Counted from the first letter of the stretch, positions 5,685-55,730 are shown. The stretch: 64,000 bases of DNA from Clostridia bacterium (GCA_040772685.1 JAXGXQ010000001.1:449930-513929), one strand, 5' to 3'. Made by a program: numbers and translations. Notes: a model not told the origin generated them from the sequence alone.

Positions 5685-8576
5685 TCAGCCGCGGCCATGA
5701 CAGTTTTTGTATTTTTTGCCGCTGCCGCAAGGACACGGGTCATTTCGGCCTGCCTTGTACTGGTCGCGCTTTGCCGGTGCCGGAGCCCCGCCATCTGTAT
5801 GCGGAGTCGCTGCTCCCGGGATTGCGGGACCGCCGCCTGAGCTGCTGCCGCGACTGCCGCGGCGTGGAGCTATTGCGGCTGCAGCATTCTGCTGCCTTGC
5901 CTGTTCATTTGAGCCGCCGCTTTCATCACCTGCGTAGCCGCTGCCGCCATGACCGGCCGTGATATTACGCGCGACACTGCGCCGTTCAACATTTTGTTCT
6001 GTGTTGAAACGGGCACGCATGATCAGGCGAACAGAATCTTCCTGAATAGCCTTATTCATAGCTTCAAACATTTCGAAGCCTTCACGTTTATATTCAATAA
6101 TCGGATCATGTTGAGCGTAGCTGCGCATACCAATGGTATCGCGCAGTTCATCCATGGCATCAATATGATCCATCCACTTGGCATCAACAGTGCGCAACAG
6201 GATCACGCGCTCAATTTCCCGCATTAATTCGGGATTTCCAACTTCATTTTCACGCCTGGCGTAGCGATCGAGCGCTTCCGCAGTGAGCTCACTGGTAAAT
6301 TCTTCAGCATCAATACCGTTACGGGCATCCTTGAGCTTATTCAGCGCATTGAGATCGCCAAAAAGATCACGGATTCTGGCGTCTATCGCAGGGATATCCC
6401 AAGTGGCCGAATCAGGTAGCTCAGAACAAAAATCGAGCATGGTTTCGCGCATCAGGTCTGTGATCATGTGCCGGTAGTTATCCCGCAGATCAGCACCTTC
6501 CAGCACCTGGCGACGCTGGCCATAGATCAGCTCGCGCTGCTTGTTCATTACATCATCGTATTCAAGCACATGCTTGCGGATTGAAAAGTTGCGTGCTTCC
6601 ACCCGCTTCTGGGCGGTTTCAATTGCGCCGGACAGCATTTTGTTTTCCAGCTGCATATCCTCTTCAACACCCAGAGTATTGAAAATTGTGGTCATTCGTT
6701 CGCCGCCGAACAAGCGCAGCAGATCGTCTTCCAGTGAAAGGAAGAACTGGCTCGAACCGGGGTCTCCCTGACGGCCGGCGCGGCCGCGCAGCTGATTGTC
6801 AATTCGGCGCGATTCGTGTCTTTCTGTACCGATTATCGCTAAACCGCCTGCCTCCACCACTTTTTTGTGTTCCAGGGCGGTTTCACGCGCATGCGCTTCG
6901 TTGATTTCTTTGAAGCGGCGGCGGATATCGATAATCTGAGGATCAGTTGTTTCATTGAAAGCAGTAGAAGCTTCGATCAGTTCTTCATCAAAGCCCTGCT
7001 TGCGCAGTTCCTGTTTCGTCATGAACTCAGGATTACCGCCCAGCAGAATATCTGTACCACGGCCGGCCATGTTTGTCGCTATTGTCACAGCGCCAATCCG
7101 CCCTGCCTGAGCGACAATTTCCGCTTCACGTTCGTGCTGCTTGGCATTGAGCACGTTATGAGGGATGCCATTGCGCCGGAATAATTCCGAAATCATCTCG
7201 GAACGCTCAACCGAAACAGTACCAATCAAAATCGGTTGACCAGTTTCATGTATTTCCCGGACAATTTCCAAAAGGCTTTTATATTTGCCATTCTGGGTTT
7301 TGTAAATCGCGTCCGGCCGGTCTTCCCTCACCATTGGTTGATTAGTAGGGATACTGATTACATCAAGAGAATAAATCGTGCGAAACTCGTCTTCTTCGGT
7401 TAAAGCTGTACCAGTCATGCCGGAAAGCTTCTTATACATCCGGAAATAATTCTGGAATGTAATCGTCGCGAGAGTCTTATTCTCCTTCTCGACCTTGACA
7501 TTTTCCTTGGCCTCAATAGCCTGGTGTAAACCGTTGCTATAACGGCGCCCCAGCATCAAGCGGCCAGTGAAGTCGTCAACAATCACGATCTCATCGTCCT
7601 TAACAACATATTGCTGATCGCGATGCATTGTGCCATGGGCTTTGAGCGCGTTGTTAATGTGATGGTTTATTTCGTAGTTTTCCTGATCGGACAGATTCTC
7701 GATATTGAAAAACTTTTCTGCCTTACGAACGCCGCTCGGTGTCATTACAGCGGTTTTAGCTTTTTCATCGACAATATAGTCGGCGTCATCGGTAATATCG
7801 CTTAAGTCAACTTTGGCATCTGTTTCTGTGACAACCATCGGCTTGAGCCTGCGCACAAGCTTGTCGGCCCGCTCATACAGATCAGAAGATGCCTCTCCTT
7901 CACCGGAAATGATCAGCGGGGTACGGGCTTCGTCAATCAGAATGCTGTCAACCTCGTCAATAATCGCGAAATTGAGCGGGCGCTGTACACACTGCTGCAG
8001 ATACATCACCATGTTGTCGCGCAGGTAGTCAAAGCCGAATTCGTTATTGGTTCCGTAAGTGACGTCGCAGGCATAGGCTGCCCGGCGCTGATCATTGTCC
8101 ATACCATGAATAATCAGGCCAACTGACAATCCCAGATAACGGTAAATTTTACCCATCCACTCACTGTCACGCCGGGCCAGATAATCGTTTACTGTGACAA
8201 CATGCACGCCCTTGCCGGTCAGCGCGTTCAGATACACCGGTAAAGTCGCGACCAGAGTTTTGCCTTCACCGGTTTTCATCTCTGCGATCCGGCCTTGATG
8301 CAATACCACGCCGCCAATCAGCTGAACCCGGAAGTGATACATGCCAAGAACTCGCCGCGAAGCCTCCCGCACCGCCGCAAAAGCATCGGGCAACAGATCA
8401 TCGAGTTCAACGCCCTCAGCAAGGCGGGCACGCAGCAATTGCGTGGTTTCTTTTAAATCCGCTTCAGACAAAGCGGCATATTTAGGCGCCAGTTCTTCAA
8501 TTTGGCTGACAATCGGGGTAATACGGCGAATCTCACGTTCACTGTGAGTACCGAATATTTTTTGGAGTAATCCCAT
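5685..8576 (-). CDS. secA: preprotein translocase ATPase SecA
   Basis: 963-aa ORF with a Walker A motif (MKTGEGKT) and a DEVD box ([18 protein letters not shown]). It has the C-terminal zinc-binding tail [14 protein letters not shown]. Confidence 0.97.
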
Positions 8577-8675: not shown

Positions 8676-9002
8676 CTATTTTTCTTTTTGTTTGTCGATG
8701 TCTTTTAGGCTGCCGCTTTTATCTAAACGTTCCAGCACCAGCTTGTAACCGTCGGCACCGTACTCAAGCGAGCGGTTAACCCTGCTGATAGTAGCAGTAC
8801 TGACGCCTGTTGCCTCACAAATTTCGGTATAGGTGCTGCCGCGGCTCAGCATAACTGCTACATGCAAGCGCTGCGCCAGGGACTTAAGTTCTGCGATTGT
8901 GCAGATATCTTCAAAGAACGCATAGCATTCCGTATGGTTTTGCAGTGAAAGGATAGCTTCAAACAATAAATCTGTAGCCTGGTCCTTTAGTTTATCATTC
9001 AT
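8676..9002 (-). CDS. YerC/YecD-family TrpR-like small DNA-binding protein
   Basis: LFEAILSLQN..CYAFFEDICTIAELKSLAQRLHVA..L..G.TY.EI...TGVSTATISRVNR is the family signature. A GAGGTGGG RBS precedes the internal ATG at 9002. Confidence 0.8.
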   Translation of the reverse strand: MNDKLKDQATDLLFEAILSLQNHTECYAFFEDICTIAELKSLAQRLHVAVMLSRGSTYTEICEATGVSTATISRVNRSLEYGADGYKLVLERLDKSGSLKDIDKQKEK

Positions 9003-9139
9003 TCTGCCCACCTCTGCTTCGCCCGGTTTTCCGAATGCAGCGCATCCGTTAACAGCCTGTTTCACACGCTAAAATGATAACGTATGAACTCCGTTAAAAC
9101 AAGTAAACAGACGGCGGCCTCCGTTTTCAAATCTGCTGT

Positions 9140-10195
9140 TTATTGTTCTTCAGCGCGCTTTGCTTTGCCGTATGCAATAAGTTCGAAGCTAAGCCCAAGG
9201 CTTTCTGCTTTTCTGCTCAAGCCGGTGAATGTATCTGTATATCTGCTTAAGTCGGCATCTGCTGGTACAATCAGCAACAGGCGCCGAGCTGAAATATCTC
9301 CAGGTTTTATCCAAATTTCACTGTTGCCAAAGGGCTTTGGGGTACCCACAAAAGCAGTTAACCTGGCAAATTGTTCGTTAATGGCCAGCTCAACTGCCTG
9401 TGGCCGGGCATAAGTCGGCTTAGTTAAATCCATGCTTTTAATAGCCAATGCTTCGCCTTGTTCAAACCTGGCGATAACGGGGTAGCTGGCTGGCAAATTG
9501 CCGCCGAATTGCTGGCGCAGCTTTTTGCCGCGAGAAAAATTATCGAGGTGCCAGATTGAACTTTCATCGCCGCTATCTTTTGCAGAACTATCTGTTTTGA
9601 TATCAGCAGGCCGCCAAATCGGGATAAAAGCTACTGCCCGACGATTGGTTTTCCCCAACAAGGTGCGGATTTCATAATCGGCTTCCAGAAACAGTTGATC
9701 AGCTTCCAGGTTCCAGTCCAGCCAGACTTGAGGCGGGTCCAGTTTGTTTTCGATTCCCAGTCGTCGATGCCAGTAATTGATCCGTGCTTCCACAATATCT
9801 GCTAACAATGCTGAAGAAGCCAGATCCAGCACAGCATCGTTGAGCAACGCTTCCAGTTTATCCGGTTGGATAACCTCCAAAATTCCTGTGCGTAACTGTT
9901 TAGCGGCTGTAAAGTCCGGATCAGGCTCAGAATTATCTGCACCTGAATCGGCAGCAAGAATCGAGTTGTTTAAAATATCTGCAATTGGAATATTAATATT
10001 GCTTTCATCGATCAAACTAAAGATTATCGGCGGCAACAATGAAATTTCTGCTGCTGTCCGGTCAAGCGCGGTTTTTAAACGCATTTCCGCCTGCACAGAA
10101 AGACACATTGAGATCAAAAACAAGAGGATCAGCAACAACGGCGGCACAGCCAAAGCTGCTTCTAAAGCAAAAGAACCTTTACGTTTCTGAATCAT
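9140..10195 (-). CDS. TadE-like N-terminal membrane anchor fused to an uncharacterised soluble region
   Basis: 351 aa. The N-terminus KGSFALEAALAVPPLLLILLFLI matches the TadE-like G-x-x-x-x-E plus hydrophobic segment. Its start overlaps the upstream stop by 4 nt. Confidence 0.6.
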   Translation of the reverse strand: MIQKRKGSFALEAALAVPPLLLILLFLISMCLSVQAEMRLKTALDRTAAEISLLPPIIFSLIDESNINIPIADILNNSILAADSGADNSEPDPDFTAAKQLRTGILEVIQPDKLEALLNDAVLDLASSALLADIVEARINYWHRRLGIENKLDPPQVWLDWNLEADQLFLEADYEIRTLLGKTNRRAVAFIPIWRPADIKTDSSAKDSGDESSIWHLDNFSRGKKLRQQFGGNLPASYPVIARFEQGEALAIKSMDLTKPTYARPQAVELAINEQFARLTAFVGTPKPFGNSEIWIKPGDISARRLLLIVPADADLSRYTDTFTGLSRKAESLGLSFELIAYGKAKRAEEQ

Positions 10196-11733
10196 GCGGT
10201 TGCCTCTAATGTCAGTAAACTGCCGTCGCGACTATATTGGCGGTTGCGATAAACGCAGCTGACAGAAATGCCGGTTGCCAGTTCGCCGGGATGCCGTTTA
10301 CTTATTAACGCGGCTGTGCGGGAAAGCAGTCTGCTGTCTGGTGATAAAAGCAGTAGAATCCGCAGATGCATCTGGTAGTTCAGTGAAAGCGCCTGGTGGC
10401 CTGCCTTTTGCTTGAAACTTAGCCGTTCACCGTTCAGCAGGCGGCCGTAGTCACTAAAGCCACTTCTGAGTCCATCGCAAATTAACAGGATATAAGCCAT
10501 AATCTGCGGATCGACAACGATACTGGTTGTTGCTGCCAGTGCGGCGGAAATAACAGCGGCAGTTGCCTGGTATCCGGCAATTCCCTGATCACTTAAGAGC
10601 TTGCGCCCAACAAACAGTGCTGCCCGATAAACTATCAAAATTGCTTTAACCTGGTTAATGGCGCTGGCCGGCGATTTTGCTCCAGTTAGAATCTGCTCGA
10701 CTTCGCCAGCCTGGCGGCCAGGAAAATCTTTTAAAGGCGAACCGGAAAGGTTGCGAAATACCGTATGCGCAACTGGCTGCTGTCGATTTGACAGTATCGT
10801 AGCTCTGCCTGGCTTGCCGGCTGACCAGAAAGTGTTAAGGATGTATTCGCGGATTGCCAGTCTGTTGTACAAACCGCCACTCGGCAGTGTCATTGCCGAG
10901 CTTAAGAGTTCCGTAAAACCGGCCAACTGTTCTGGTTCAAACAAATTCGGCATTGTCACCAATTGCTGGTGCTCACTGTCAGCAGCGCAATCGTTGACAT
11001 AGCGTCGGTATTGATCCAACGCTTCCTTGAGTTCCTGATCAAGCAGCCCATAAACAGCGTTACTTAGCAGTTGAGGAATCGCTTCTGCAACTGTCGTAAT
11101 TTCTTTGACAGGCGGCTTTTCCGGTTGTTGTGCATTATTTCCTTTAGGCGGTTCAGATTCTGAATCATGTGTTTTATCTGAATTTCCAATATCAACATTG
11201 GGATAAACAACTGCAGCCGGTTCAGCAGAACCAGAACCGAAGCTGAAGCCTGTTTGTTCGGCAATCGTACGCAAAGCCGTTGCCGGCAGGCGTAAACGCA
11301 TAAAAGTGAGAATGCCTTCCTTGAGGACATCCGGATCGGAGAGCGATTCACCAACAGCCTGGCTAAGTTGCAGTTGCGCTCCCCGCAGATGCTCCGGCAG
11401 TATTCGTTCAAAGCAATCCTCACGCTTGTTGCTGTCGAACGACAATAAACCAAATTCAGTGTAAAGCGCTTTGTTGAAGCCTGCCAAACGGCTCTGGACC
11501 TGGCCCGACAAAGCTCGGTCGATATCAAGCAGGTCGGCCTGCAGCCGGGCGCCCCCAAACAATGTTGTAAGAATCAGAATCAAAGGCAGAGAGATTATGG
11601 TCAACAACAGAACAGCGCTTCCCTGCCGCCTGCGGAGAGTTTGAGGAAAACCCTGACGCCTTACGGACTTGTTTTTGCTTGCCCGGTATCTGCGCTGCAC
11701 ATATTTGTTTGCTGTCTTACTTTTTCGCCTCAT
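10192..11733 (-). CDS. TadG-like/uncharacterised membrane-anchored protein
   Basis: 513 aa. A basic N-terminus is followed by QGSAVLLLTIISLPLILIL (TadG-like N-terminal anchor) and a Pro/Glu-rich linker. A C-terminal region carries hydrophobic helices. It is translationally coupled on both sides. Confidence 0.55.
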   Translation of the reverse strand: MRRKSKTANKYVQRRYRASKNKSVRRQGFPQTLRRRQGSAVLLLTIISLPLILILTTLFGGARLQADLLDIDRALSGQVQSRLAGFNKALYTEFGLLSFDSNKREDCFERILPEHLRGAQLQLSQAVGESLSDPDVLKEGILTFMRLRLPATALRTIAEQTGFSFGSGSAEPAAVVYPNVDIGNSDKTHDSESEPPKGNNAQQPEKPPVKEITTVAEAIPQLLSNAVYGLLDQELKEALDQYRRYVNDCAADSEHQQLVTMPNLFEPEQLAGFTELLSSAMTLPSGGLYNRLAIREYILNTFWSAGKPGRATILSNRQQPVAHTVFRNLSGSPLKDFPGRQAGEVEQILTGAKSPASAINQVKAILIVYRAALFVGRKLLSDQGIAGYQATAAVISAALAATTSIVVDPQIMAYILLICDGLRSGFSDYGRLLNGERLSFKQKAGHQALSLNYQMHLRILLLLSPDSRLLSRTAALISKRHPGELATGISVSCVYRNRQYSRDGSLLTLEATA

Positions 11734-12035
11734 TGTTTAATCAAGCCGAGAATTTTCATGTCATCAATAACAGCAGTTATCAGACAAAACATCAGCTTAG
11801 GCGAAGTCAGCAAAACTTCCCTGCCAGCTGCAGCGGGCTCGTCTGTCGTCGCTGTTGCTGAAACTTCCGCTAACAGGTACAACGTTGCTGGATCAGCCGT
11901 CAGGCGGGCTGCCTGGCGAAAGCAGCCGGCAGTAGCTACTGCTTGCCGGTAACAGTTAATAGCCGGTGGTACTGTGCCCAGAATCAAACTTATCGTCATG
12001 GGCAGCACCAGAGCCGCTTCGAGTGTAAATGCCAT
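11730..12035 (-). CDS. small TadE-like pseudopilin-like protein
   Basis: MAFTLEAALVLPMTISLILG N-terminus. A GGGAGG RBS sits 7 nt before the ATG at 12035, so the track's GTG at 12044 is less likely. Confidence 0.55.
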   Translation of the reverse strand: MAFTLEAALVLPMTISLILGTVPPAINCYRQAVATAGCFRQAARLTADPATLYLLAEVSATATTDEPAAAGREVLLTSPKLMFCLITAVIDDMKILGLIKQ

Positions 12036-12181
12036 AAAAAACACCTCCCGCGTTATTGTCGCAGGAGGCGTAATTAACTTGTTTATTATCTTGGCGTCAG
12101 GAAGCGACAGGTGCCGCTTTCATCATTTCAGTGTACTTCTTGGCGCCGAACTTGACGCCGCGCTTGACGCTGCTGTTGAGA

Positions 12182-12910
12182 TTACCTTGGCAGCACCTTC
12201 GACAGGAATGCCCGGGTACGCTCTTGTTGCGGATTGTCGAAAATCTGCTCAGCGCTGCCTTGCTCAACAATCATCCCCTCATCCATGAAAAAGATGCGGT
12301 TGCTGATCTGGCGGGCGAAGCCCATTTCGTGGGTGACGATCACCATGGTCATGCCTTCGTTAGCCAACTCGCGCATTACTTCCAGCACTTCACCGATCAT
12401 TTCCGGATCAAGCGCCGAGGTTGGTTCGTCAAACAGCATTGTTTTCGGATTCATCGCCAGAGCCCGCGCGATTGCGATTCTCTGCTTCTGCCCGCCTGAC
12501 AAACGTCCGGGGTACTCATTGATCTTGTCCATCAGGCCGACACGTTTGAGCAGATAGTCGGCTTTTTCACGTGCCTGCTCCTGATCCATCAGCTTAAGCT
12601 GCAAGGGAGCCAGCGTAATGTTTTCCAAAACTGTCAAATGCGGAAACAGGTTGAAATTCTGGAATACCATGCCCATATGACTGCGCACTTTATTAATGTC
12701 TACCTTTGGGTCTGTTACTACAACATCATCGATAGTGATTTTGCCGGATGTTGGTGTTTCCAATAGATTCAGGCAACGCAGAAATGTGCTCTTGCCGGAA
12801 CCGGACGGCCCAACAACGACAATCTTTTCGCCGTCATGAATAGTTTCACTGATGTCTCGTAAAACTTCCAGGTCACCAAATTGTTTGTACAGGTTTTCAA
12901 CGGTTATCAC
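12182..12910 (-). CDS. amino-acid ABC transporter ATP-binding protein
   Basis: Walker [10 protein letters not shown], signature LSGGQKQR, and Walker [16 protein letters not shown] at 12910 lies 10 nt after AAAGGAGG. The track's TTG at 12919 is too close to the RBS. Confidence 0.9.
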
Positions 12911-13607
12911 TGCGTGCAAGCCTCCTTTCCAGCATATTCATAATCTTGGTCAGGAGGACCACAACAATGAGGTAAATCAGCGCCACAGCCAGCAGGGGCA
13001 GCAGCGGGTCAAAGGTACGCGCCCGGATCAGGTCACCGGCACGGGTCAGGTCGGCCACGGCAATGTAACCGGCCACAGCGGTTTCCTTAAGCAGAGTAAT
13101 CAGTTCATTAAACAGCGTGGGCAGAATATTTTTGACAGCCTGCGGCAGAATGATCTTCCGCATGGTTATGCCATAGTTGAGGCCCAGTGAACGTCCGGCC
13201 TCCATCTGGCCACGGTCAACCGATTGAATGCCGGCCCGGAAAATTTCCGCGACGTAGGCACCGCTGTTAAGGCCGAACGCCAGCGCGGCCACCAACACCT
13301 TGTCGATGGTCACACTGGCGAAAATTACGTAATAGATAATCAGTAGCTGGACGACAACCGGTGTGCCGCGGATCACAATCAAATAGGCGTCCGCTAACTG
13401 ACTGAGCACCGGAATCTTGCGTCCATGCAGCTGCGAGACCTTGATCAGTGCCAGAAACAGACCGATGACGACACCGAGCAAAGTGGCCAATACTGTAATC
13501 TTGAGCGTAACTCCAAGACCTTCGACCAACCACATCCAGCGGTTATCAACGATAAAATCGTTTATGAAGTTTTCTTTCAGCGTACTGAGGGTCAATGCAG
13601 CTATCAT
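12897..13607 (-). CDS. amino-acid ABC transporter permease
   Basis: 236 aa and polytopic, with the EAA-like loop ([23 protein letters not shown]) typical of polar amino-acid permeases. Confidence 0.9.
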
Positions 13608-13613
13608 CTTTGC

Positions 13614-14534
13614 TTACTTCTGGCTGGATTTGCGCATCAGCACAACCTGCCTGGCATCAGTGTAAGGATCGGAGAAAGAAACGTTAACTTTACGGTCATC
13701 ACTGACTGTCATACCGGCAGCAATAACTTTGATCTTACCGCTTTTAACGGCCGGAATCAGGCCTTCAAAGCTCATATTCTCAACCACCAGCTCCATATTG
13801 AGTTTCTTGGCTACTGCAGCCATGATGTCAATATCAACGCCGATAATGTCGTTGCCCTGTGTATATTCGTAAGGCGGGAATGTAGGTTCTGTACCGATCA
13901 CAAGCTTGCCGCCACTGGCGCCAACATTGAAATCGGGGGCTTTGCCGTTTTGGCCGACATGTGATTCTTTGAATTTGACAATGCTGTCACTGGCTTTAAG
14001 TTCAGCGATAACTTCATTGATCGTTTTCAACAAATCCTCAGAACCTGTTTTGGCAACGCCCATGGCATACTCTTCAGGTTCAAAACCAACATCAAGAACC
14101 ATCAGATCAGTGTTCTGCTCAGCATAGGCGGCAGCAGTGTCCGCATCCATAATCATGCAGTCAACTTTTTTCTGCTTCAAAGAGCTTACAGCGTCAACAT
14201 AAGCAGTAAAACGCTCGACAGATTTTGCCTTAATTTCGTCAGAAGCGATTTCGTCGCCGATTGTGCCCAACTGAACACCAATCACTTTGCCCTCCAGGTC
14301 TGCCTGACTGCCGATTTTGATAGCGTCAGACGCAGTTGTTGTCGGGGCGGCAGTGGTGGGTGCTGTTGTTACAGCAGTTGTGCCAGCGGTGGTACCGGCA
14401 GTTGTACCAGCGGTTGTGCCAGCGGTTGTGCCGGCAGTTGTAGCAGTGGTCGTGGTTGAACCAGTGCCGCAGGCGGTCAGGAAAATCATGCTCATGACCA
14501 GGATTACAGAAAGTACCAAACTAATTCTTTTCAT
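13614..14534 (-). CDS. amino-acid ABC transporter substrate-binding lipoprotein with a Thr/Ala-rich linker
   Basis: Signal peptide plus lipobox (MIFLTAC|G), then the linker TTTATTAGTTAGTTAGTTAGTTAGTTAVTTAPTTAAPTTTA, then a family-3 binding domain. A GAAGAGGAG RBS precedes the ATG at 14534. Confidence 0.85.
   Translation of the reverse strand: MKRISLVLSVILVMSMIFLTACGTGSTTTTATTAGTTAGTTAGTTAGTTAGTTAVTTAPTTAAPTTTASDAIKIGSQADLEGKVIGVQLGTIGDEIASDEIKAKSVERFTAYVDAVSSLKQKKVDCMIMDADTAAAYAEQNTDLMVLDVGFEPEEYAMGVAKTGSEDLLKTINEVIAELKASDSIVKFKESHVGQNGKAPDFNVGASGGKLVIGTEPTFPPYEYTQGNDIIGVDIDIMAAVAKKLNMELVVENMSFEGLIPAVKSGKIKVIAAGMTVSDDRKVNVSFSDPYTDARQVVLMRKSSQK
14377..14448. repeat. 6 x 12-bp imperfect tandem repeat encoding (AGTT)n in the lipoprotein linker
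   Basis: The plus strand reads gttgtgccagcg/gtggtaccggca/gttgtaccagcg/gttgtgccagcg/gttgtgccggca/gttgtagcagtg. Confidence 0.9.
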
Positions 14535-14628
14535 TACTTGCTCCTCTTCAACTTTTATCACGGTGCGAATTTAAATCACATCACGGTGAATGTTCACGCA
14601 TCTCAAATTTATATCGTATTATGCTTGT

Positions 14629-28671: not shown

Positions 28672-29181
28672 TCAGGCGCGGCCACAACATACCTTGTATT
28701 TTTTGCCGCTGCCACAGGGGCAGGGGTCATTGCGGCCGACTTTATTACTTACCGCAATTTTGGAGCGGCGCCAATCTTTGGCCAGTTCTTCACGTCGAGC
28801 CGCTGAGAGCACCTTATCCCAGGTTTCGAGGTTGTACAGCCAATCGGCCTTGGCTTCATGCATCTTGATATAAAGCTTTTCAAAGTCGAGCTCTAACTTC
28901 ACAGAGGTTTCGTCGGCAATTTCTTCAAGTTCGAGCGTCTGTTTCAGAGCTTCATTCAGCCCGTCAAGAAAGCCCACGAATGTGACCATATCATTCTTAA
29001 AGCCAAGTTCTTTTGCTAAATCAGCGGCTGTGCCTTGCGGGATCTCTGGATAATTAGCCAAAATCTGGCTGTAAGCCTCAGTTTCAACGTCATAGTAATT
29101 TTGGACAAAAGCCTGGTATTCCGACTCATTGGCCATGCCGGAGCCTTGGATTGCTGTCTCCCATTCGGAGAAATAACTCAT
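28672..29181 (-). CDS. SEC-C metal-binding motif protein of unknown function
   Basis: 169 aa. The C-terminal [21 protein letters not shown] is the SecA-type zinc-binding tail. The rest is acidic and helical. Confidence 0.75.
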
Positions 29182-31740: not shown

Positions 31741-34314
31741 TTACTTAGTCTTACTGCCAGGGCTCCTCAACCAGGTGCTGACTGAAGTGCGGTCAGAATA
31801 AATTTTGACTACTATGGCCCCACACTGATCGGTGCGGGCCAGGCCGATATCCCGCTGCTCAAGGCGTTCCAGCATGGTCGGGGCCGGGTGACCATAATCG
31901 TTACGTCCGACGCTGATCAAAGCCAGTTCTGGTTCAACAGCGCTCAATAGTGACAAGCCAGTAGTTGCGTTTGAACCGTGATGAGCGACTTTTAAAATAT
32001 TTGCCTTCAGGTTTTGCCCTGAGCGAACCAGTTCCTGTTCGCTCTCCCGGTCGCAATCAGCTGTTAACAGCAACGAAAAGCTGCCGTCGGCAGCGGTCAA
32101 ACGCATAATCAGGCTATGAGCGTTGCTTCCGCGCCGGTTCAACTCCAATATGGCTGCATCACTGCTGAGCGGCTCTGTCGGTGCCAAAACCAGAAGTTTT
32201 GCGCCTGAACCTAACGGGATTGTATCACCTTTTTCTGTGCCCTGCACCTGCAGACCTGCTGCCCCGGCAAGCGGTAAAAGCCCTGCCAATACATCCTTTT
32301 CCAAACCATTAGAATTTTTCTGTAGCTCGTTGTCCGAATTTGTCAATTGATCAAGACTAATCTGCGGTACGACAATCCGGTCAATTTTCACTGGCGTAAG
32401 CAGACTCTTAAGACCGCCTGCGTGGTCAGCATGTCCATGCGTTATGATAACCTGACTAAGCTTGCGAATGCCCAAAGCCTGCAAAGCGGGTTGTAAATCA
32501 GCTTTTCCCGCAGCCTCTGTGCCTGTGTCGATTAAGGTAGTAGTTCCATCCCGCGCCTGCAGTAACATGGCATCGCCCTGACCCACATCAAACATCCAGA
32601 TTGTCAGATCCGGCCTGGTCACACTGGTTTGAAGCTGGAGAATCATTGCTGCCAGCAACAGCAAACAAGCTAAACGCTGCATTCGGCGCCGCCAATGGAA
32701 CGACACTATAATCAGACTGGCGAAAGCGATTGCCAAGGCTGCCAGATAGAGTTGCGGCAGCTGGCCGGTGAGGACACGCGGCCAACCAGGCGCGGCAAAA
32801 ACAGTCGCCAGTCGGATCAGAGCCTGCAAAAGCCAGCGCACCGGCCAGGCCAGGATGCGCAAGCATACTGCTATCGCGGATATTTTGGCGGTCATAGGCA
32901 GCAATAACAAGGTTGGCAGCAGAACACAGGCTCCGAGTAAAGAAATGCCTTCTGCCAACGGCAAGGCCGGCAGATTCGCGACAATTGAAAGCGGCGAGAA
33001 GATGCCCGTGACCAGCAGCTGCAGAGGCAAAACAGTCAGTTGGACAGAGAGATTAAGGGAAAGCAGTACCCTGATTCCTGCAGGCAACAAGGGAATCCAG
33101 CGTTGCAGTCTTGCTGACATTCTTTCACTTGCCAGTAAAATTCCGGCAGTCGCTAAAAACGAAAGCTGAAAAGAAAATGAAAGAATTAGCAGCGGTTTGC
33201 TCAGCAGCATAAAAGTGGCAGCAAACAGTAAAGCGTTCAAGGGGTCACTGCGGCGGCGGCCAAGTTTCCCGACCAGCGTCAGAATAACCATTATGATGGC
33301 GCGGGTTACGGAAGCTTCCCAGGCAGTTAAAAAACCAAAGCCAAGCACAAAGATCAGCAAGCCCAAAATCCGCAAATTGCGGCGGCGCAACACCTTCAGT
33401 AACAGATATGTCATTGGCGCCAATAAGAAAGCGACATTAGCCCCAGATACAGCTGTCAGGTGAGAAATTCCGGCTGCCTGAAAAGCAGCTTTGTCTTGCT
33501 TCGACATTCGAGCTGTATCGCCCGTCAAGACACCCAGCAACAAGCCGGCTTCTTCTGCTGGCATCAACATCAGAGCAGCCTTGGTGAGCGCTGCCCTGGC
33601 CCGCAGAGCACCGACTGACAGAATATTAGTACTTTTGTCGGTTACTTGCAGTCGATTGAGAAATAAATCGGCTTTGAGAAAAATTCCGGAACGGGCTAAA
33701 TACATCTTTTCATCAAAACCACCGGGATTTCGTTGAGCAGAGGGCACAGAAAACCGGGCCTGAAAACTGATTGTCTGCCCCGGCAGCAGATGCCCCACTT
33801 CCCCGCTTAATTGCACAACACTGCCGTCAGATAATCGGACATCAACCCGCCCCCAGTCATTTCCAAAGTCGGGATCAGCAGCTGTTACCAGCTTGATTAC
33901 CTTGCCGCTTTCACGGGCGATTCTGCCGCTAAGCCGTTCCTGGGCAGCCTTGCCGCCAGCCAGCAGTACCTTTGTCTGCCAAAAAGTTAAACAAAAACAG
34001 ACACAAACAAGCAAAATTACAAAACGGAAGAATGAAGCTTGTTGTTCTTCTAAGACTGGTCTAAGCAAGTCTGAAGCTTGTTGGTTTTTTAATCTGTACC
34101 TTTGACCTGGCGAAATTACCAGCCGAAAAATCAGCAAAACAACGACAAAAAGCGACACAAGAACAAGCGGCACAAACGAAACCTGGTTGCCAAGCCTGCT
34201 GTCTGCAACCCGCCAGGCAAGTCCTGAACCGGCAGCCGCAGCACAGGCAGGTCCCAGCATTGGTGGACATCTGGCAAAAGCGGCCTGAAAGCGACGGTTC
34301 TGAATGTCTGGCAT
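31741..34314 (-). CDS. comEC: DNA internalisation-related competence protein ComEC/Rec2
   Basis: It has a polytopic competence domain plus a C-terminal MBL domain (ITHGHADHAGG, VAHHGS). An AGGAGG RBS precedes the ATG at 34314. Confidence 0.88.
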   Translation of the reverse strand: MPDIQNRRFQAAFARCPPMLGPACAAAAGSGLAWRVADSRLGNQVSFVPLVLVSLFVVVLLIFRLVISPGQRYRLKNQQASDLLRPVLEEQQASFFRFVILLVCVCFCLTFWQTKVLLAGGKAAQERLSGRIARESGKVIKLVTAADPDFGNDWGRVDVRLSDGSVVQLSGEVGHLLPGQTISFQARFSVPSAQRNPGGFDEKMYLARSGIFLKADLFLNRLQVTDKSTNILSVGALRARAALTKAALMLMPAEEAGLLLGVLTGDTARMSKQDKAAFQAAGISHLTAVSGANVAFLLAPMTYLLLKVLRRRNLRILGLLIFVLGFGFLTAWEASVTRAIIMVILTLVGKLGRRRSDPLNALLFAATFMLLSKPLLILSFSFQLSFLATAGILLASERMSARLQRWIPLLPAGIRVLLSLNLSVQLTVLPLQLLVTGIFSPLSIVANLPALPLAEGISLLGACVLLPTLLLLPMTAKISAIAVCLRILAWPVRWLLQALIRLATVFAAPGWPRVLTGQLPQLYLAALAIAFASLIIVSFHWRRRMQRLACLLLLAAMILQLQTSVTRPDLTIWMFDVGQGDAMLLQARDGTTTLIDTGTEAAGKADLQPALQALGIRKLSQVIITHGHADHAGGLKSLLTPVKIDRIVVPQISLDQLTNSDNELQKNSNGLEKDVLAGLLPLAGAAGLQVQGTEKGDTIPLGSGAKLLVLAPTEPLSSDAAILELNRRGSNAHSLIMRLTAADGSFSLLLTADCDRESEQELVRSGQNLKANILKVAHHGSNATTGLSLLSAVEPELALISVGRNDYGHPAPTMLERLEQRDIGLARTDQCGAIVVKIYSDRTSVSTWLRSPGSKTK

Positions 34315-34479
34315 AGAAAAAACCTCCTGACGGAGGCATTTTCGCACTTAAGTATTGTTATTGGGGCATCCCCCTGAAGTCAGAAAACGACAGGTCAGGT
34401 TTTAATAAGTTGCGTGGAACAGCTGGCAGGGAAAATATCCGCTTTGATTGTGACCGTTTTGATTGGCTTTGTCGGCAGA

Positions 34480-35395: not shown

Positions 35396-35420
35396 TTAAT
35401 AAACTGGCAGGAGAGAATTG

Positions 35421-36641
35421 ATGTCGGCTGAACAGGTCGGAGGCGACAAAAACTACTTCATTTATGATCAGTACGGCGACAACACCATGCCGCCTGTGGG
35501 CCCGATAGGGCTTGTTTCATTGCAAATCAGCGATGATTTTTCGGACGCTGTCAATTATCATCTGCGCAACCGCCGCTCTACTTATCTGGCAAAACACCCT
35601 GAACTGACGCAGAACCCCGGTTTTATCCGGCTTGATTACCGCCTTAATTATGATATTGAGCGTTTCCCTTCCGGCGAAGGCAAAGCCGTGATCAACCAAT
35701 CGGTACGCGGCCACGACTTATTTATCATTACCGACGTGCTCAATTACAGTGTCGAGTACACCCGCTTCGGCAAATCCGTCAGCACCAGCCCCGATGATCA
35801 TTTTCAGAACCTGATCCGGGTTATTCTGGCAACAGCCGGCCAGGCACGACGCATCAATCTGGTAATGCCTTATCTTTATGAAGCCCGCCAGTACCATCGC
35901 ACAGCCCGTGAATCCCTCGATTGCGCCCACATGTTGCAGGAACTCGACAAACTCGGCGTTGACAACATCATTACTTTTGATGCGCATGACGCCCGGGTTG
36001 CCAATGCCATACCGCTGCGCAGTTTTGAATCGATCCCCACTTCTTTCCAGATAATTGAATCGCTGCTGACCTCCGTTCCCGACCTCGATCTCGTGCCGGG
36101 CCGCTTTATGGTTGTCAGTCCTGACGAGACCAGTATTGCCCGTTGTATGTACTACGCCTCGATGATGGAAGTGCCGCTCGGCATTTATTACCGCCAGTTC
36201 GACCATTCCAAAATTGTTAATGGCCGCAATCCGATTATCGCCTACTCATTCCTGGGCGAAGATGTCAGCGGTCAGGACGTTCTGGTGGTTGACGACATGA
36301 TCATGACAGGCAACACCATGCTGCGAATTGCCCGTGATCTCAAGGCTAAAGGTGCCCGCCGCGTTTTTTGCGCCGCATCCTTCGCCCTGATGACCAATGG
36401 CATCAAGGAAATCCAGCAGGCATACGACGAAGGTGTAATTAACAAGGTAGTATCCACCAACCTGATCTATCGACCGGAAGAACTGCGCCAGGCGCCCTTT
36501 TTCACCGAAGTTGACATGTCGCGTTTTGTCGCTCTCCTGATCGATGCCATTAACCATGACGCCTCATTGTCCACCTTGATTACACCTACCATTAAAATCA
36601 CCAAGTTGCTTGATTATCATCGAAGGAGGACACAACTTTGA
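35421..36641 (+). CDS. PRPP-synthetase-like (ribose-phosphate pyrophosphokinase family) protein, paralog A
   Basis: About 406 aa. Prs N-domain RFPSGEGKAVINQSVRGHDLFIITD, ARRINLVMPYLYEARQ, and PRPP loop VLVVDDMIMTGNT. The SPDxGG and KRR motifs are replaced by SPDETS and RQF. Confidence 0.75.
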   Translation: MSAEQVGGDKNYFIYDQYGDNTMPPVGPIGLVSLQISDDFSDAVNYHLRNRRSTYLAKHPELTQNPGFIRLDYRLNYDIERFPSGEGKAVINQSVRGHDLFIITDVLNYSVEYTRFGKSVSTSPDDHFQNLIRVILATAGQARRINLVMPYLYEARQYHRTARESLDCAHMLQELDKLGVDNIITFDAHDARVANAIPLRSFESIPTSFQIIESLLTSVPDLDLVPGRFMVVSPDETSIARCMYYASMMEVPLGIYYRQFDHSKIVNGRNPIIAYSFLGEDVSGQDVLVVDDMIMTGNTMLRIARDLKAKGARRVFCAASFALMTNGIKEIQQAYDEGVINKVVSTNLIYRPEELRQAPFFTEVDMSRFVALLIDAINHDASLSTLITPTIKITKLLDYHRRRTQL

Positions 36642-37861
36642 TCGTTCCAGACGATAAGTCTTACTACATTTATAACCAGTATGGCAACAATCGGATGCAG
36701 CCAGTCGGCCCGGTTGGGATTATTCCCTTAATCGGCAGTATGGAATTTGCGGAAAAAGTCAACGAATTCCTCTGTTCCCGCCGCACTGAATACCTGGAGC
36801 TGCAGCCTGAAGCTGCTGACGAAAGCCCAGGGTTTATCCGCAGCGACTACCGTGTCTCAGTCAATACCCTGCGCTTCTCCTCGGGTGAAGGCAAAGCTGT
36901 TATCAACAACACCGTTCGCGGGCATGACATATTCATTATCACTGATGTGATGAACCATTCCTGCACCTACTGCATGTTTGGCGAACCCAACCGCATGAGT
37001 CCTGACGACCATTACCAGGATCTCAAGCGCGTTATTTACGCGATCAGCGGCAAAGCCCGCCGGATCAATGTTGTCATGCCTTTTCTGTATGAAAGCCGCC
37101 AGCACAAACGCAATTCCCGCGAATCGCTGGACTGTGCCGCCATGCTGGAAGAACTCGCTGACCTCGGCGTTGCCAATATCCTCACCTTTGACGCCCATGA
37201 CGACCGCGTAGCCAATGCTGTACCGATTGGCGGTTTCGAAAATATCGGCGCTGTTTACCAGATTATCAAGGCCATGTTCCGGACAATCGAGAACCTCAAT
37301 ATCCGCGATGACAAAATGATGATCGTCAGCCCGGATGAAGGCGGTATCCCGCGCGCCATGTATTACTCATCCATGTTGGGTCTGCCGCTGGGAACTTTTT
37401 ATAAGCGACGCGATTACACCCAGGTTATCGAAGGCCGCAACCCCATTATTGCGCACGAGTTCCTCGGCGATTCCGTTGAAGGACTTGACATCCTGATTGT
37501 TGATGATATGATTTCTTCCGGCGAATCGATGATCGATATCGCACGTGAACTCAAGAGCCGCAAGGCTAACCGTATCTTCTGCGCAGTTACTTTCGGCTTG
37601 TTCACAAACGGCATTGATGCTTTTCAGGAAGCCTATGAACAAGGTATAATACATAAGGTTTTCGCGACCAACCTGACCTATCGCCGGCCTGAACTGCTGG
37701 CAGCGGAATGGTTTGTCGATGTAAATATGGCAAAATTTGTGGCGCTGCTGATCGATGCGATCAACCATGACGCTTCGTTGTCCACCCTGGTTGACCCAAC
37801 GGTTAAAATCCGCAATCTGTTAAATAACCGCGGTAGCCTGGACAACAGCTCAAACAAATAA
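36638..37861 (+). CDS. PRPP-synthetase-like protein, paralog B
   Basis: 407 aa. The TTG start is coupled to the stop of A (TTGA) and lies behind a GAAGGAGG RBS. It keeps SPDEGGIPRA and KRRD, but the PRPP loop is ILIVDDMISSGES. It shares the block FVALLIDAINHDASLSTL with A. Confidence 0.75.
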   Translation: MIVPDDKSYYIYNQYGNNRMQPVGPVGIIPLIGSMEFAEKVNEFLCSRRTEYLELQPEAADESPGFIRSDYRVSVNTLRFSSGEGKAVINNTVRGHDIFIITDVMNHSCTYCMFGEPNRMSPDDHYQDLKRVIYAISGKARRINVVMPFLYESRQHKRNSRESLDCAAMLEELADLGVANILTFDAHDDRVANAVPIGGFENIGAVYQIIKAMFRTIENLNIRDDKMMIVSPDEGGIPRAMYYSSMLGLPLGTFYKRRDYTQVIEGRNPIIAHEFLGDSVEGLDILIVDDMISSGESMIDIARELKSRKANRIFCAVTFGLFTNGIDAFQEAYEQGIIHKVFATNLTYRRPELLAAEWFVDVNMAKFVALLIDAINHDASLSTLVDPTVKIRNLLNNRGSLDNSSNK

Positions 37862-46785: not shown

Positions 46786-48246
46786 CTACTCAGCTTGTTT
46801 GCCGGCTGTTTTTGCCAACTGATTGAGAATGGAGGCGGCAGCAGCCAGAAAAATCAGATAATAAGGTGTTGTATAAGGCATAGTATTACCAAACAAGGCA
46901 GAAACAAAATAAGCAACTATTGTGCCCGCCAGAACGATGCCCTCAACACCCAGCTGCAGGCGGCTATACCAGAAGCGCTTGAACAAAACAGCCAGAGCGC
47001 CAAGATAGAACAATAGTGCCGGTATGCCCAGGCTGGCAGCCAGCTGGATAAGTTCATTGTGGGGCCGGTCTATATTCACATTAACAAGCAGATAGCGGGC
47101 GCCCAGATTATCAGGCCCATAGCCAAACCAGGGTTTTTCAGCGATAAAACGAACACCGTTGGTCCAGAGAACCCAACGTCCGGAACCGGCTCTGCCTGAT
47201 TCTTCGGCACGGCGCAGAATCAGGCTGAAATCACGGAAAAGACGCATTAAGTCAGCGCCCAGAACATTAGTATAAATATTCATCAACAATGAAACCAGCA
47301 GGAATAAGCCGCTGACCAGCAGCAGACGTTTCAGCTGATCAGGCTGCAGCCGGCGCAGGCCGATACCAACCGCTATCAGGCCGCAGACAACAGCCAGATA
47401 CGGCCCTAAAGACTGATCCTGCACTAAAGCGGCTGTCTGCAATAAAAAAGCCGCTAGATACAGGCCTCGATGCTGACGCTTTAATTCCGTTAAGTACAAA
47501 AGCAAAGCTGACATGATAGTCAGACAAAGGTAATAACCATAGTGATTGGAATTATAGAAAATACCTGTTCGAGCCCCGATACCGAGGCGCTGGTTTAGCG
47601 GCTCATAGTTAAGCAGCACTAATACAGCCATTAACGAGGAAACCGCTGTCAGCAGACGCAGCAGACGTTTAAAATCAGGCCAGTTTCTCAGCGCCAGGGC
47701 GCTTAAAAAAACTCCGCCATACATCAGGTAGGTGCGCAAGCCCTCGCGGCGATACTGATCGCCATACCAGGAAAGTAAACGGTTATCAGAAAAGAAAAAA
47801 GACAATACGCTCCAGCCAAGCAGCAGAGCAAGGCTCAGTTCAAAATAATGCGTTTTGAACCAGGCGCCTAGATGCAGCTGCTTGTGTTGAATCTGCCTGA
47901 AACCTTTAGCAAGCACAACTATACTCATCAACCAGCTTAATAAACCTGCCTGCTGCAGTATCTCTTCCCAGAAAAAGCTGCGTGAAAGATGGTTAAGCAT
48001 TAAGTTCAATTCAGTATTCGCCGGCAAAGCTATACTCCTGAGCATCACGATCAGGGGCCCAGCCAGCCAATAAAAGAGCGGCAGCTGCCGGGCTATATCA
48101 AGCGAGCGCGCTGGTATATAATCCAACAATTCCGGAACAGTTCGAATAGCCAGCAGTTCTGTTCTGACAGTACTCGCCCGCGCAAGAAAAAACACTGTTT
48201 TCGCACGTAGATTCAAACCGTTGCCCAGGCTGGCCTCGCCGCTCAT
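46786..48246 (-). CDS. O-antigen ligase / Wzy_C-family polytopic membrane protein
   Basis: 486 aa with at least 10 hydrophobic helices. It contains NSNHYGYYL and the C-terminal FGYGPDNLG......RPHNELIQLAASLGIPALLFY block typical of Wzy_C proteins. Its start overlaps the upstream stop (ATGA). Confidence 0.75.
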   Translation of the reverse strand: MSGEASLGNGLNLRAKTVFFLARASTVRTELLAIRTVPELLDYIPARSLDIARQLPLFYWLAGPLIVMLRSIALPANTELNLMLNHLSRSFFWEEILQQAGLLSWLMSIVVLAKGFRQIQHKQLHLGAWFKTHYFELSLALLLGWSVLSFFFSDNRLLSWYGDQYRREGLRTYLMYGGVFLSALALRNWPDFKRLLRLLTAVSSLMAVLVLLNYEPLNQRLGIGARTGIFYNSNHYGYYLCLTIMSALLLYLTELKRQHRGLYLAAFLLQTAALVQDQSLGPYLAVVCGLIAVGIGLRRLQPDQLKRLLLVSGLFLLVSLLMNIYTNVLGADLMRLFRDFSLILRRAEESGRAGSGRWVLWTNGVRFIAEKPWFGYGPDNLGARYLLVNVNIDRPHNELIQLAASLGIPALLFYLGALAVLFKRFWYSRLQLGVEGIVLAGTIVAYFVSALFGNTMPYTTPYYLIFLAAAASILNQLAKTAGKQAE

Positions 48247-49523
48247 ATAAATGTATCGCTGCTATCGGGGTTGAGCACGCTGTTGAGAAAATCGCGAGCA
48301 AACAGCAGATTAACTTCTTCCAGGCGCAACAGCACACGATTGCCGCGGTTTTTGGCCAGGACCAGCTCGCGCGCTGTAATTACCTTACCGTCAGGCGCGG
48401 CCAGCTCGGCCGGGTCCTGTTTGTTTTCCAGGGCAAGTTCAAGAGTCGGGCGATCGTAATACATAACCTGGTGGCTGAAATCCTGGTGATCCAGCAAGTA
48501 AAAGCCGGGGAACTCCAGCAATAAAACCGCCGGTGCCAACAGGCAGCAATTGACCAGTTGCATTAACAAGGGCTGGTACAAAGCGCGTTTGCGCTCCTGG
48601 CCAACCGTCTGGCGGCCAATCAGGTTAATCATGGCCCACTGCCGGAAATTCAACCTGACCTGCTCCGGCACAATTGCCCAGACTTGCAGGGCGTCAGCAC
48701 TGGCGGCGGCCGGGTCCGCTTTCGGCTTGGCCTGATCAGCCGCGGGCGGCATGCCAAACTGCTGCAGGATAACCTGATTCAGCGGGAGAAACTTCTGGTC
48801 GCCGCGAAACTCGTTGTAAATCGCTGTAATCAGCCGGGCCTTTTCAGCGGTTTCGGCCAGTTCCAGGCACTGGCTGAATAGTTCCGTTTCAGCGGCGGTA
48901 AGCTCGGGCGGGCACAACTGAAAAAATTCCAGCAGGAGGAGTGTCCCGAAGCGGCTGGCGGCATAAACGCTCAGCTCCGCCAGCTTGCTGCTTAAAGACC
49001 ATGGCCCGTTTACGCCGCTGAGCGGCTTTTGCTGTTCGTCAAGCAGAAACTGGGCTGTTTGGCGCGGCAGGCTTTCCTCGCAGCCAAAACGCCCGCACAG
49101 CGCCAGAAACGGCGGTGTTTCGCCTTTTGCTGTCAGGGCGGTATTCAGCCGGGCCATAGCTTCGGCTAATTCAACGTGGTAGAAGTGCTGCTGATAAAAC
49201 GCCCAGCCGGTTTGAGCCAGCGAAAGTGTCGCCCGGCGTTCAATAATCTGCTGAATGCGCTGCTGAGCCTGTTCAGTAGCAGTTAAGGCTGAAAGCGGCG
49301 CTTCAATTACCAGCAGCAGGCCAAACAGATCATTAAGCTGGCGCCTGGGCAAGCGGGCCACCAGTAAATCAAAGCCGTCACCGGTGGCGGTGGTTTCGAT
49401 CAGCTGCAGCAGCTCCTGCAGCCTGGTTTCATCAAGCCGGACAGAAAGCTCTTCCGGTAAGGGCTGCTGGCGAATAACCTGCTGGCGAACGTGATGAAGT
49501 TTTGAGTCGGACACATGCAGCAT
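48243..49523 (-). CDS. hypothetical soluble protein (426 aa), no motif recognised
   Basis: A long ORF with no TM segments. Its start abuts the stop of the 988-aa gene (TAAATG at 49521-49526). Confidence 0.6.
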   Translation of the reverse strand: MLHVSDSKLHHVRQQVIRQQPLPEELSVRLDETRLQELLQLIETTATGDGFDLLVARLPRRQLNDLFGLLLVIEAPLSALTATEQAQQRIQQIIERRATLSLAQTGWAFYQQHFYHVELAEAMARLNTALTAKGETPPFLALCGRFGCEESLPRQTAQFLLDEQQKPLSGVNGPWSLSSKLAELSVYAASRFGTLLLLEFFQLCPPELTAAETELFSQCLELAETAEKARLITAIYNEFRGDQKFLPLNQVILQQFGMPPAADQAKPKADPAAASADALQVWAIVPEQVRLNFRQWAMINLIGRQTVGQERKRALYQPLLMQLVNCCLLAPAVLLLEFPGFYLLDHQDFSHQVMYYDRPTLELALENKQDPAELAAPDGKVITARELVLAKNRGNRVLLRLEEVNLLFARDFLNSVLNPDSSDTFI

Positions 49524-53098: not shown

Positions 53099-53470
53099 AT
53101 GAAAAGAAAATCCAAAAAGGGTTTTACCCTAATTGAACTAATCGTCGTCGTCGCGATCATCGCCATTCTGGCAGCTATCGCAATTCCCAGATTCGCGAAC
53201 ATGCGGGCAAATTCTCAAGTAAGAGCTGAGGGTGCAACAGCGGCCCAGATCGTGACTGCCGCAAGAGTACAGGAAGCTGAAAAAGGTGCAAAAGTAAATG
53301 GTGATGCAGCTACAGCAATTTTAGACGAATATATGGATGCTCCAACTGGGTTTACAATCACTGGTGGTGCCGAAGATCCTTATGAAGTCAGTTGGACAAC
53401 ATCTGCTGCAGGTTACAAATCCTCACAGAAGTATACTGAGAATGTAGAGTTTAATCCAGCTAAATCATAA
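53099..53470 (+). CDS. type IV pilin / pseudopilin with a class III (prepilin) signal
   Basis: MKRKSKKG|FTLIELIVVVAIIAILAAIAIPRF is a canonical prepilin peptidase site followed by the hydrophobic alpha1 helix. 123 aa, ending ...NPAKS. An ACGGAGG RBS is present. Confidence 0.9.
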   Translation: MKRKSKKGFTLIELIVVVAIIAILAAIAIPRFANMRANSQVRAEGATAAQIVTAARVQEAEKGAKVNGDAATAILDEYMDAPTGFTITGGAEDPYEVSWTTSAAGYKSSQKYTENVEFNPAKS

Positions 53471-55618: not shown

Positions 55619-55730
55619 AAACCATCCATTGCGGAAGCTAAGAAACCAGCCAGCTGTAGAATAAAGACTCCACTGCCAACCACCCGCTCAGGTATCCTTT
55701 TAGTATTGCAAACTGAAAGGATGAACGGAG

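Follow-up and report, generated by a model that had tools for sequence, protein, structure and literature searches.

A conserved trio of Tad-type pseudopilin-like genes beside secA in Clostridia, a candidate filament-tip set bearing a degenerate toxin-nuclease fold

We describe three adjacent genes, hereafter the trio, in a 64,000-nucleotide stretch of a Clostridia bacterium genome (GCA_040772685.1, JAXGXQ010000001.1:449930-513929; this whole 64-kb stretch is referred to as the window, and positions are counted from its first letter). The three proteins are bitopic, begin with an N-terminal helix of the class III (prepilin) type and are conserved as a unit apart from filament motors. With a confidence somewhat above even, we read them as a stand-alone set of Tad-type (TadE/TadF/TadG-like) minor pseudopilins that would form or prime the tip of a filament whose machinery is encoded elsewhere. 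A TadEFG-like tip cassette is of a known kind; unexpected are a subunit without a leader, a recycled toxin fold and putative control by Spo0A and an RNA hairpin. The genes are laid out as follows:

11730..12035, minus strand: protein 1 gene, 101 amino acids (aa); the open reading frame (ORF) spans 11730..12044 and the true start is the ATG at 12035
10192..11733, minus strand: protein 2 gene, 513 aa
9140..10195, minus strand: protein 3 gene, 351 aa

An earlier note on this DNA had described the three genes as coupled by overlaps and their products as having pseudopilin-like N-termini, and both observations are reproduced here: 4-nt ATGA overlaps lie at 11730-11733 and 10192-10195, and all of the quoted starts are found, protein 1 reading MAFTLEAALVLP, protein 2 RRRQG followed by SAVLLLTIISLPLILIL, and protein 3 KRKG followed by SFALEAALAVPPLLLIL. 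In each protein one strong hydrophobic segment lies at the N-terminus, and nothing further along is a convincing membrane span. The flanks are likewise as had been described, with a polar amino-acid ATP-binding cassette (ABC) transporter upstream (12182-14561, pheT and pheS further out) and yerC (YerC/TrpR-like, 8676-9065) followed by secA (5685-8576) downstream, and the base composition of the trio is unremarkable, with no island signature. With hundreds of homologues and a kept gene order, these are real, conserved genes.

The pseudopilin assignment starts from protein 3, whose residues 7-48 match TadE (PF07811) at 26.7 bits, above the Pfam cut-off of 22.9; 10/23 of its homologues match the domain at E<=0.01. 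Its leader, MIQKRKG, is followed by SFALE, which places a Glu at +5, and among 44 distinct relatives the residue at -1 is G in 40/44 and A in 4/44, the residue at +5 is E in 44/44, and a basic leader stands before the site. This N-terminus is a class III signal as found in subunits of type IV filaments, where the Glu5 of a subunit pairs with the N-terminus of its neighbour (PMC10191384). The AlphaFold2 (AF2) model of protein 3 (predicted local distance difference test, pLDDT, of 77, and >90 in the C-terminal domain) comprises a 47-residue N-terminal helix (6-52), a helical insert, a 3-stranded sheet (156-192), a flexible linker and an alpha/beta domain (215-345). The architecture is pilin-like, and we describe protein 3 as a modular TadE-type pseudopilin.

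Protein 2 differs at +5: its 38-aa basic leader ends in Gly and is followed by SAVLLL..., with no Glu at +5, and its orthologues, which read G followed by S/Q-x-x-x-F-L-C-I, carry F or L at +5 in the manner of a cap subunit. One N-terminal hydrophobic helix precedes a mostly helical body of the DUF5702 family (PF18960). The window protein alone, at 21 bits, falls short of the cut-off of 26 (residues 339-446, window 10396-10719), while 35/37 family members match the domain (best 2.9e-50) and the matches in loci L041 and L051 reach 147-156 bits; membership in DUF5702, as judged by profile, holds at the family level. The Tad domain PF13400, the TadG-type N-terminus, is matched by 6/37 protein 2 family members at E<=0.01 (best 7e-6), with no match in the window protein and 19.1 bits, against a cut-off of 22.3, in the L041 orthologue. 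A search of the DUF5702 family profile against PDB sequences returned coiled-coil noise only (E>0.03), an exact look-up found no identical database record for the 513-aa protein, and we found no mention of DUF5702 in the literature searched.

Protein 1 has no Pfam or NCBIfam match. Its start is fixed by the ribosome-binding site GGGAGG 8 nt before the ATG at 12035; an upstream GTG was rejected as a start, as it falls inside this ribosome-binding site. The protein carries a conserved C-terminal motif, TSPxxM...VIDD, and its A2 aligns to the +1 residue of TadE-domain orthologues (hhalign, probability 91%) and to Ser8 of protein 3 (hhalign, probability 79%). A leader is absent in 19/19 of the secA-linked loci in which the small gene was read, and the secA-linked orthologues start alike (for example MAFTLE, MSHTLQ, MGSTLE and MHTLQT), with E or Q at position 5. 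Met-aminopeptidase removes the initial Met before A, S or G and retains it before H or N, a rule that would place a polar E/Q at mature position 5 in most protein 1 orthologues. The first trio gene in a second group of Clostridia codes for a longer protein (220-290 aa), in which the leader is normal and TadE is matched (35 bits in L041). Protein 1 itself reads as a TadE-like pseudopilin that starts at the mature +1 position. The earlier characterization of the whole trio as TadE/TadG-like is supported: it stands for protein 3 by its TadE match, for protein 2 through the Tad matches in its family, and for protein 1 through the hhalign alignment to TadE orthologues, but proteins 1 and 2 taken alone stay below threshold.

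The second line of evidence concerns what the trio may display. The C-terminal part of protein 3 is a distinct module:

9161..9553, minus strand: protein 3 C-terminal domain, residues ~215-345; CdiA-CT EC869-like PD-(D/E)XK fold with degenerate catalytic residues

The contact-dependent inhibition (CDI) toxin restriction endonuclease-like domain PF21111 is matched by 20/23 protein 3 homologues (best 8e-12), and by window protein 3 alone not even at E<=1. The family profile retrieves two CdiA-CT toxins from the PDB sequences, 4g6u_A (E 1.7e-7) and 4zqu_A (E 1e-6), and the same two are the only significant hits of a Foldseek search of the PDB with the C-terminal domain (E 9.1e-6 and 3.4e-5, respectively, probability 1.00 each). 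The domain is homologous to the CDI_toxin_EC869_like toxins in sequence and in predicted fold. The earlier note had called the large regions of proteins 2 and 3 unassignable; this now gives way to DUF5702 and the degenerate CdiA-CT EC869-like domain.

The CdiA-CT toxins are Zn-dependent DNases with catalytic residues E177, D198, S209 and K211 (PMC9086364). Toxin D198 aligns to Ala242 of protein 3 (in YPVIA) and S209-x-K211 to A251-I-K253; the K211 equivalent is kept as Lys253, and at the S209 equivalent most relatives have Ser but the window has Ala251. Across distinct pseudopilin-fused sequences the D198 position is A, S, G or N in 50/50, and the conserved Glu/His position of the toxin helix is Arg in 49/50 (Arg227 in the window), such that the helix motif RG..IE..LGANLP of the Rhs toxins becomes RG..LR..FGGNLP in the fused proteins. 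In the Rhs toxin relatives D198 is kept in 26/26 aligned sequences, and the helix position is mostly Glu or His. The relatives retrieved by a metagenome scan fall into three kinds. Two are full-length, either linked to secA or encoded elsewhere; the third consists of C-terminal parts of larger proteins, several of these containing Rhs repeats, and these C-terminal parts match PF21111 above threshold and carry the motif FPVID...ATSIKS. Proteins with an intact FPVID...SIKS occur in loci L054-L084 (for example L064:1790-7069 and L073:85-3222); these Rhs-repeat or large PF21111 proteins, which are probably polymorphic toxins with DNase activity, were our catalytically competent reference set. In the pseudopilin-fused module the fold is kept, with at least one metal ligand gone and probably two. 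Because both the catalytic Asp and the Glu/His are lost, we read the module as a binding domain rather than an enzyme, most plausibly one that would bind nucleic acid (extracellular DNA capture, adhesion or uptake).

It is improbable, in our judgement, that protein 3 is instead an active membrane-anchored extracellular nuclease (compare NucA and EndA, or a role in nutrition from extracellular DNA) with proteins 1 and 2 as accessories. Such a nuclease would fit the homology to Zn-dependent DNase toxins, the retention of Lys253 and Asp256, the Ser found two residues before the Lys in 46/50 fused sequences, and the presence of comEC in the window (31741-34347); it would have to operate, however, with D198 replaced by Ala, Ser, Gly or Asn in every fused sequence, with Arg at the sole conserved acidic/His position of the toxin helix in all but one and, in the window protein, with Ala at the S209 equivalent as well, and the Rhs relatives hold on to D198 throughout and to the Glu/His mostly. 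Very improbable is a contact-dependent toxin-delivery device, in which a pilus tip would carry the CdiA-CT-like nuclease into competitors. Outside the trio, members of the domain family form the C-termini of CDI and Rhs polymorphic toxins, and Tad-like pili do carry out contact-dependent killing in Myxococcus (PMC12075869), but the active site is degenerate, no candidate immunity gene is present where protein 3 directly precedes yerC or secA, the base composition shows no island signature, and the domain has been kept vertically and deeply at one chromosomal site, contrary to what polymorphic toxins do. Across the family the pseudo-nuclease domain is conserved, vertically inherited and not polymorphic, and it is this inheritance, together with the loss of the active site and the lack of an immunity gene, which disfavours both the active nuclease and the toxin device.

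The third line of evidence is the distribution of the cassette. Its close relatives in species-representative genomes are uncultured Oscillospiraceae. Surveyed for synteny next to secA, ~30 loci keep the trio order as pheS-pheT-(ABC transporter)-small gene-DUF5702-TadE/nuclease-fold-(yerC)-secA, and the pheST...secA order is kept down to 23-35% protein 3 identity, including on chromosomes of 1.4 and 2.4 Mb. The second group (L028-L055, from metagenomes), with its longer, leader-bearing first subunit, has a DUF5702 subunit of ~800 aa, and here the trio adjoins other housekeeping genes (a DUF4080 radical-SAM protein, a pyridoxal-phosphate enzyme, an S11 carboxypeptidase, prkA-yhbH-spoVR, and dnaE with gnd); about 1/3 of these loci lie near prkA-yhbH(DUF444)-spoVR and an S11 D,D-carboxypeptidase. 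An exhaustive profile search yielded 231 cluster representatives at E<=1e-30 and 1110 at E<=1e-10, and a second, word-indexed homologue search by profile added nothing new. All named cluster members are 'hypothetical protein' entries from Clostridiaceae or Oscillospiraceae metagenome-assembled genomes, and no NCBIfam model covers the trio proteins or their orthologues. The suggestion that this is a conserved but uncharacterised module is therefore well founded: it is kept across Clostridia under hypothetical annotations only. The cassette, widespread and uncharacterised, is found apart from a motor throughout.

This detachment was first claimed for the window, where the earlier note had seen no tadA, tadB/C, prepilin peptidase or flp gene, and a Pfam survey of its gene-sized ORFs agrees, with no T2SSE/TadA, T2SSF/TadB-C, Peptidase_A24 or Flp in the 64 kb; nor does any of the six reading frames of the window contain a secretion-ATPase Walker A motif. 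The linkage to TadA/CpaF, TadB/TadC, Flp and TadV that marks a Tad/Flp (type IVc) locus is absent from the window. Elsewhere, the secretion-ATPase Walker A is missing from all ORFs >=250 aa in 85 fetched loci, tad machinery families are absent among the neighbour families of 14 loci, and the ~10 kb around ~50 related loci are free of genes for a filament ATPase, a platform protein or a prepilin peptidase. A cluster of ATPase- and platform-sized ORFs at 24-31 kb of the window, considered as a hidden Tad locus, proved to be mreCD, radC, maf, an asnS/aspS-type tRNA synthetase and icd. By Pfam the window has housekeeping content (secA, ahcY, pheST, gdh, PBP2, mreCD, radC, maf and a class II tRNA synthetase), with icd, holA, comEC, prs, ruvABC, rqcH and an IS21/Mutator patch besides.

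One filament gene was nevertheless found in the window:

53099-53470, plus strand: canonical non-Flp type IV pilin, MKRKSKKG followed by FTLIELIVV; N_methyl PF07963 39.1 bits, TIGR02532 37.5 bits

The gene stands alone, its neighbours being an opposite-strand gene for a 988-aa coiled-coil membrane protein and transposase fragments. Given this pilin, the genome makes at least one prepilin-peptidase substrate, and the gene, as read, implies a PilD/ComC-type prepilin peptidase and some filament machinery elsewhere in the genome. The orphan status claimed for the trio thus stands with respect to Tad machinery, in the window and at the ~50 loci, with the correction that a non-Flp type IV pilin gene had been missed. 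We infer that the trio depends on machinery encoded elsewhere.

Fourth, the region upstream of the trio contains two candidate control elements:

12041..12071, minus strand: stem-loop, arms ACGCCTCCTGCG and CGCGGGAGGTGT with loop acaataa, 12 pairs, 8 of them G-C; then TTTTT and the ATG
12093..12109, minus strand: direct repeats TGTCGCT (12109-12103) and TGACGCC (12099-12093), 10 bp apart, degenerate 0A-box-like

The gap before protein 1 is 146 nt and ends in the hairpin, the 3' arm of which holds the protein 1 Shine-Dalgarno (SD) sequence GGGAGG (12049-12044); the structure is terminator-like and sequesters the SD. Equivalents lie at the corresponding positions in L004-L052. Stable SD hairpins fold in 15/17 secA-linked 5' regions (-11.9 to -28.1 kcal/mol), RNAalifold supports 11 pairs, 5 of them compensatory, and two loci pair an SD of GGGGG with CCCCC; the hairpin has no Rfam match. 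We hypothesize that it acts as a terminator of the upstream operon, an attenuator or a translational brake. A scan of the 146-nt gap found no sigma-70 promoter; -10-like hexamers occur just after the 0A-like box (in the window GATAAT at 12090-12085, after the repeats) and in the hairpin loop, and the 5' hairpin arm may be part of the trio transcript.

The window repeats keep the contact bases G2, C4 and G5 of the 0A box. On the coding strand of 17 non-redundant upstream regions, TTGTCG occurs 20 times against 1.0 expected (~20-fold over locus background) and TGTCGAA 9 times against 0.21 expected on the same strand (~40-fold). The box, TTGTCG(A/T)A, lies at -61 to -67, and many loci have a second at -73 to -86, 10-11 or ~20 bp further up; stronger copies than those of the window are seen in L007, L008, L013, L018 and L025, at -61 to -86 from the ATG. 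The 0A-like boxes are absent upstream of the second-group (non-secA-linked) loci. TGTCGAA is the core of the Spo0A box in Bacillus and C. difficile, with confirmed targets at -67 to -78 (PMC3485338), and it is possible that Spo0A controls the trio; the literature searched held nothing relevant that pairs TadE with sporulation or Spo0A. Between the 0A-box-like repeats and the SD-sequestering hairpin, expression of the trio appears to be tightly controlled.

These features also bear on a different reading, in which the trio would be a machinery-independent membrane complex, its TadE-like N-termini serving only as anchors or as a three-helix bundle, with an envelope role (for example in Spo0A-controlled stationary phase or sporulation) and never polymerised. 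The lack of an adjoining motor at ~50 loci and the vertical inheritance within the housekeeping region pheST...secA keep such a filament-independent complex plausible, and it would also accommodate the 0A-box-like repeats, the proximity of the trio to prkA-yhbH-spoVR and S11 carboxypeptidase genes in other Clostridia, and a leaderless protein 1 that needs no prepilin peptidase. Yet the Glu at +5 of protein 3, invariant in 44/44 and preceded by Gly/Ala at -1, is hard to square with a plain anchor; a charged residue within a membrane helix is normally selected against. Moreover, the combination of a large Glu5-less subunit with two smaller ones mirrors known tip complexes, and the sporulation neighbours are confined to ~1/3 of one subclass, the very one without 0A-like boxes. 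We regard this complex as possible but unlikely, if clearly less so than the nuclease and the toxin device.

On our preferred reading, that of a tip or priming set, the three alpha-1 helices would bundle into a heterotrimeric complex comparable to GspI/J/K or to Myxococcus KilL/N/M, with the large, Glu5-less DUF5702 protein as its cap. Proteins 2 and 3 would be processed by a prepilin peptidase, while protein 1 would bypass it, its translation beginning at +1. A type IV filament machinery encoded elsewhere (Tad, type IVa pilus or Com) would then build on the complex, which would display the CdiA-CT(EC869)-like module of protein 3.

Type IV filament tips consist of minor pilins, with a Glu5-less subunit as the cap, and domains are grafted onto some pilins (PMC10191384). 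The TadE/TadF/TadG proteins of the Aggregatibacter and Caulobacter Tad systems (type IVc) share with the trio the G|xxxxE motif and hydrophobic helix, a large partner of TadG type with a G-terminated leader and no Glu5, and an expected processing by prepilin peptidase; unlike the clostridial genes, which are never so linked, theirs end a tad operon with tadZABCD, flp and tadV, and their C-terminal domains are unrelated to those of the trio. The closest likeness is to the Kil proteins of Myxococcus xanthus, where the TadE/F/G homologues KilL/N/M form heterotrimeric tips, predicted as a helix bundle, and are encoded in four clusters, three of them outside the kil cluster, which itself carries kilLMN4, in the order small-large-medium and transcribed at low levels (PMC12075869). 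As in the trio, three adjacent TadE/TadF/TadG homologues of small, large and medium size occur together, in several clusters away from the machinery, and the large subunit has an extra domain of unknown fold. In contrast, the trio belongs to a monoderm host of the Clostridium class, its large subunit has a helical DUF5702 body where KilN has a beta-scaffold, its display module is on the medium subunit and has a dead nuclease fold, its first subunit is leaderless, and it is present in one copy in the window at a fixed core-genome site and known here from genes alone.

More distantly, GspI/GspJ/GspK and PilHIJK likewise combine a small, a medium and a large Glu5-less cap subunit that prime assembly (PMC10191384), but their homology to the trio is confined to the N-terminal helix and their genes lie in machinery operons or a dedicated minor-pilin operon. 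PilB and PilC of Streptococcus sanguinis also bear an unrelated C-terminal globular graft with a binding function on a pilin module, although there vWA and lectin domains are grafted onto type IVa pilins, compared with a PD-(D/E)XK toxin-type fold on a Tad-type pseudopilin here. The module itself shares its alpha/beta fold and the motifs G-x-N-L-P, F/Y-P-V-I and S-I-K-S-x-D-L with CdiA-CT of EC869 (TA271) and YPIII and with PF21111 Rhs proteins; E177, D198, S209 and K211 are all retained in the toxins, which are paired with an immunity protein, whereas the fused family has lost D198, has no immunity gene and is non-polymorphic.

Several points weigh against the tip-set reading. The 64 kb of the genome that were read contain none of the filament ATPase, platform protein and prepilin peptidase that it calls for, and vertical core-genome conservation beside secA contrasts with Tad systems, which are frequently transferred horizontally (PMC6668835). 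Window proteins 1 and 2 are each below the Pfam TadE/Tad thresholds on their own, and protein 1, having no basic leader, is of uncertain membrane orientation. The AF2 model of protein 2 has a pLDDT of 33 (from an alignment of 8 sequences), too low for a fold search with its DUF5702 body. As for the module, the equivalence of Arg227 with E177 is indirect, as the alignments to 4g6u and 4zqu begin downstream of E177, and DNA binding by the pseudo-nuclease is a guess.

A more far-reaching version, which we consider doubtful, is that the trio is the priming or tip complex of an unrecognised core-genome filament or pseudopilus in spore-forming Clostridia, switched on by Spo0A, with a subunit that needs no peptidase because its translation begins at the mature +1 residue, and a pseudo-nuclease acting as a receptor for extracellular DNA or another polymer. 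The motor could then be of a sort that Tad pseudopilins do not usually accompany, for instance Com, a type IVa system or even the ATPase/platform-like proteins of SpoIIIA. If true, such a filament would tie type IV filament biology to the stationary-phase and sporulation programme.

Other parts of the window may be recorded briefly. Just upstream of the lone pilin gene, a minus-strand cluster (46786-52490) encodes a 486-aa membrane protein with Wzy_C (O-antigen ligase-like), a 426-aa protein with no Pfam match and the 988-aa coiled-coil membrane protein; Wzy_C enzymes include pilin O-glycosyltransferases. Beyond the pilin gene are two IS21-type transposase/IstB units (54110-57835) with Mutator-family transposase fragments on either side (53675-54055 and 59040-59522), and in 60001-64000, where GC falls to 0.35-0.40, a 455-aa ORF (60206-61573) has no assignment; 53675-59522 and 60001-64000 look like a mobile or foreign segment. 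The comEC gene (minus strand, Competence and metallo-beta-lactamase domains) is ~20 kb from the trio. A tandem pair of 407-aa ribose-phosphate pyrophosphokinase-like paralogues lies at 35418-37861 on the plus strand, and a small protein with only a SEC-C motif at 28672-29181 on the minus strand; similar SEC-C ORFs occur ~9 kb upstream of the trio in L015, L025, L030 and L052.

The tip-set reading would give DUF5702, along with several hundred 'hypothetical' proteins widespread in gut and bioreactor Clostridia, a role that can be tested, and would extend the customisation of Tad-type filaments by exchangeable TadEFG tips to monoderm anaerobes. The module of protein 3 would show a toxin nuclease fold put to new use in nature, as a probable binding module on a pilin, and the 0A-box-like repeats and the hairpin over the ribosome-binding site offer handles on when the trio may be expressed. 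Finally, a pseudopilin that is leaderless and, in effect, 'pre-processed' bears on how strictly prepilin peptidase is needed in the priming of filaments.

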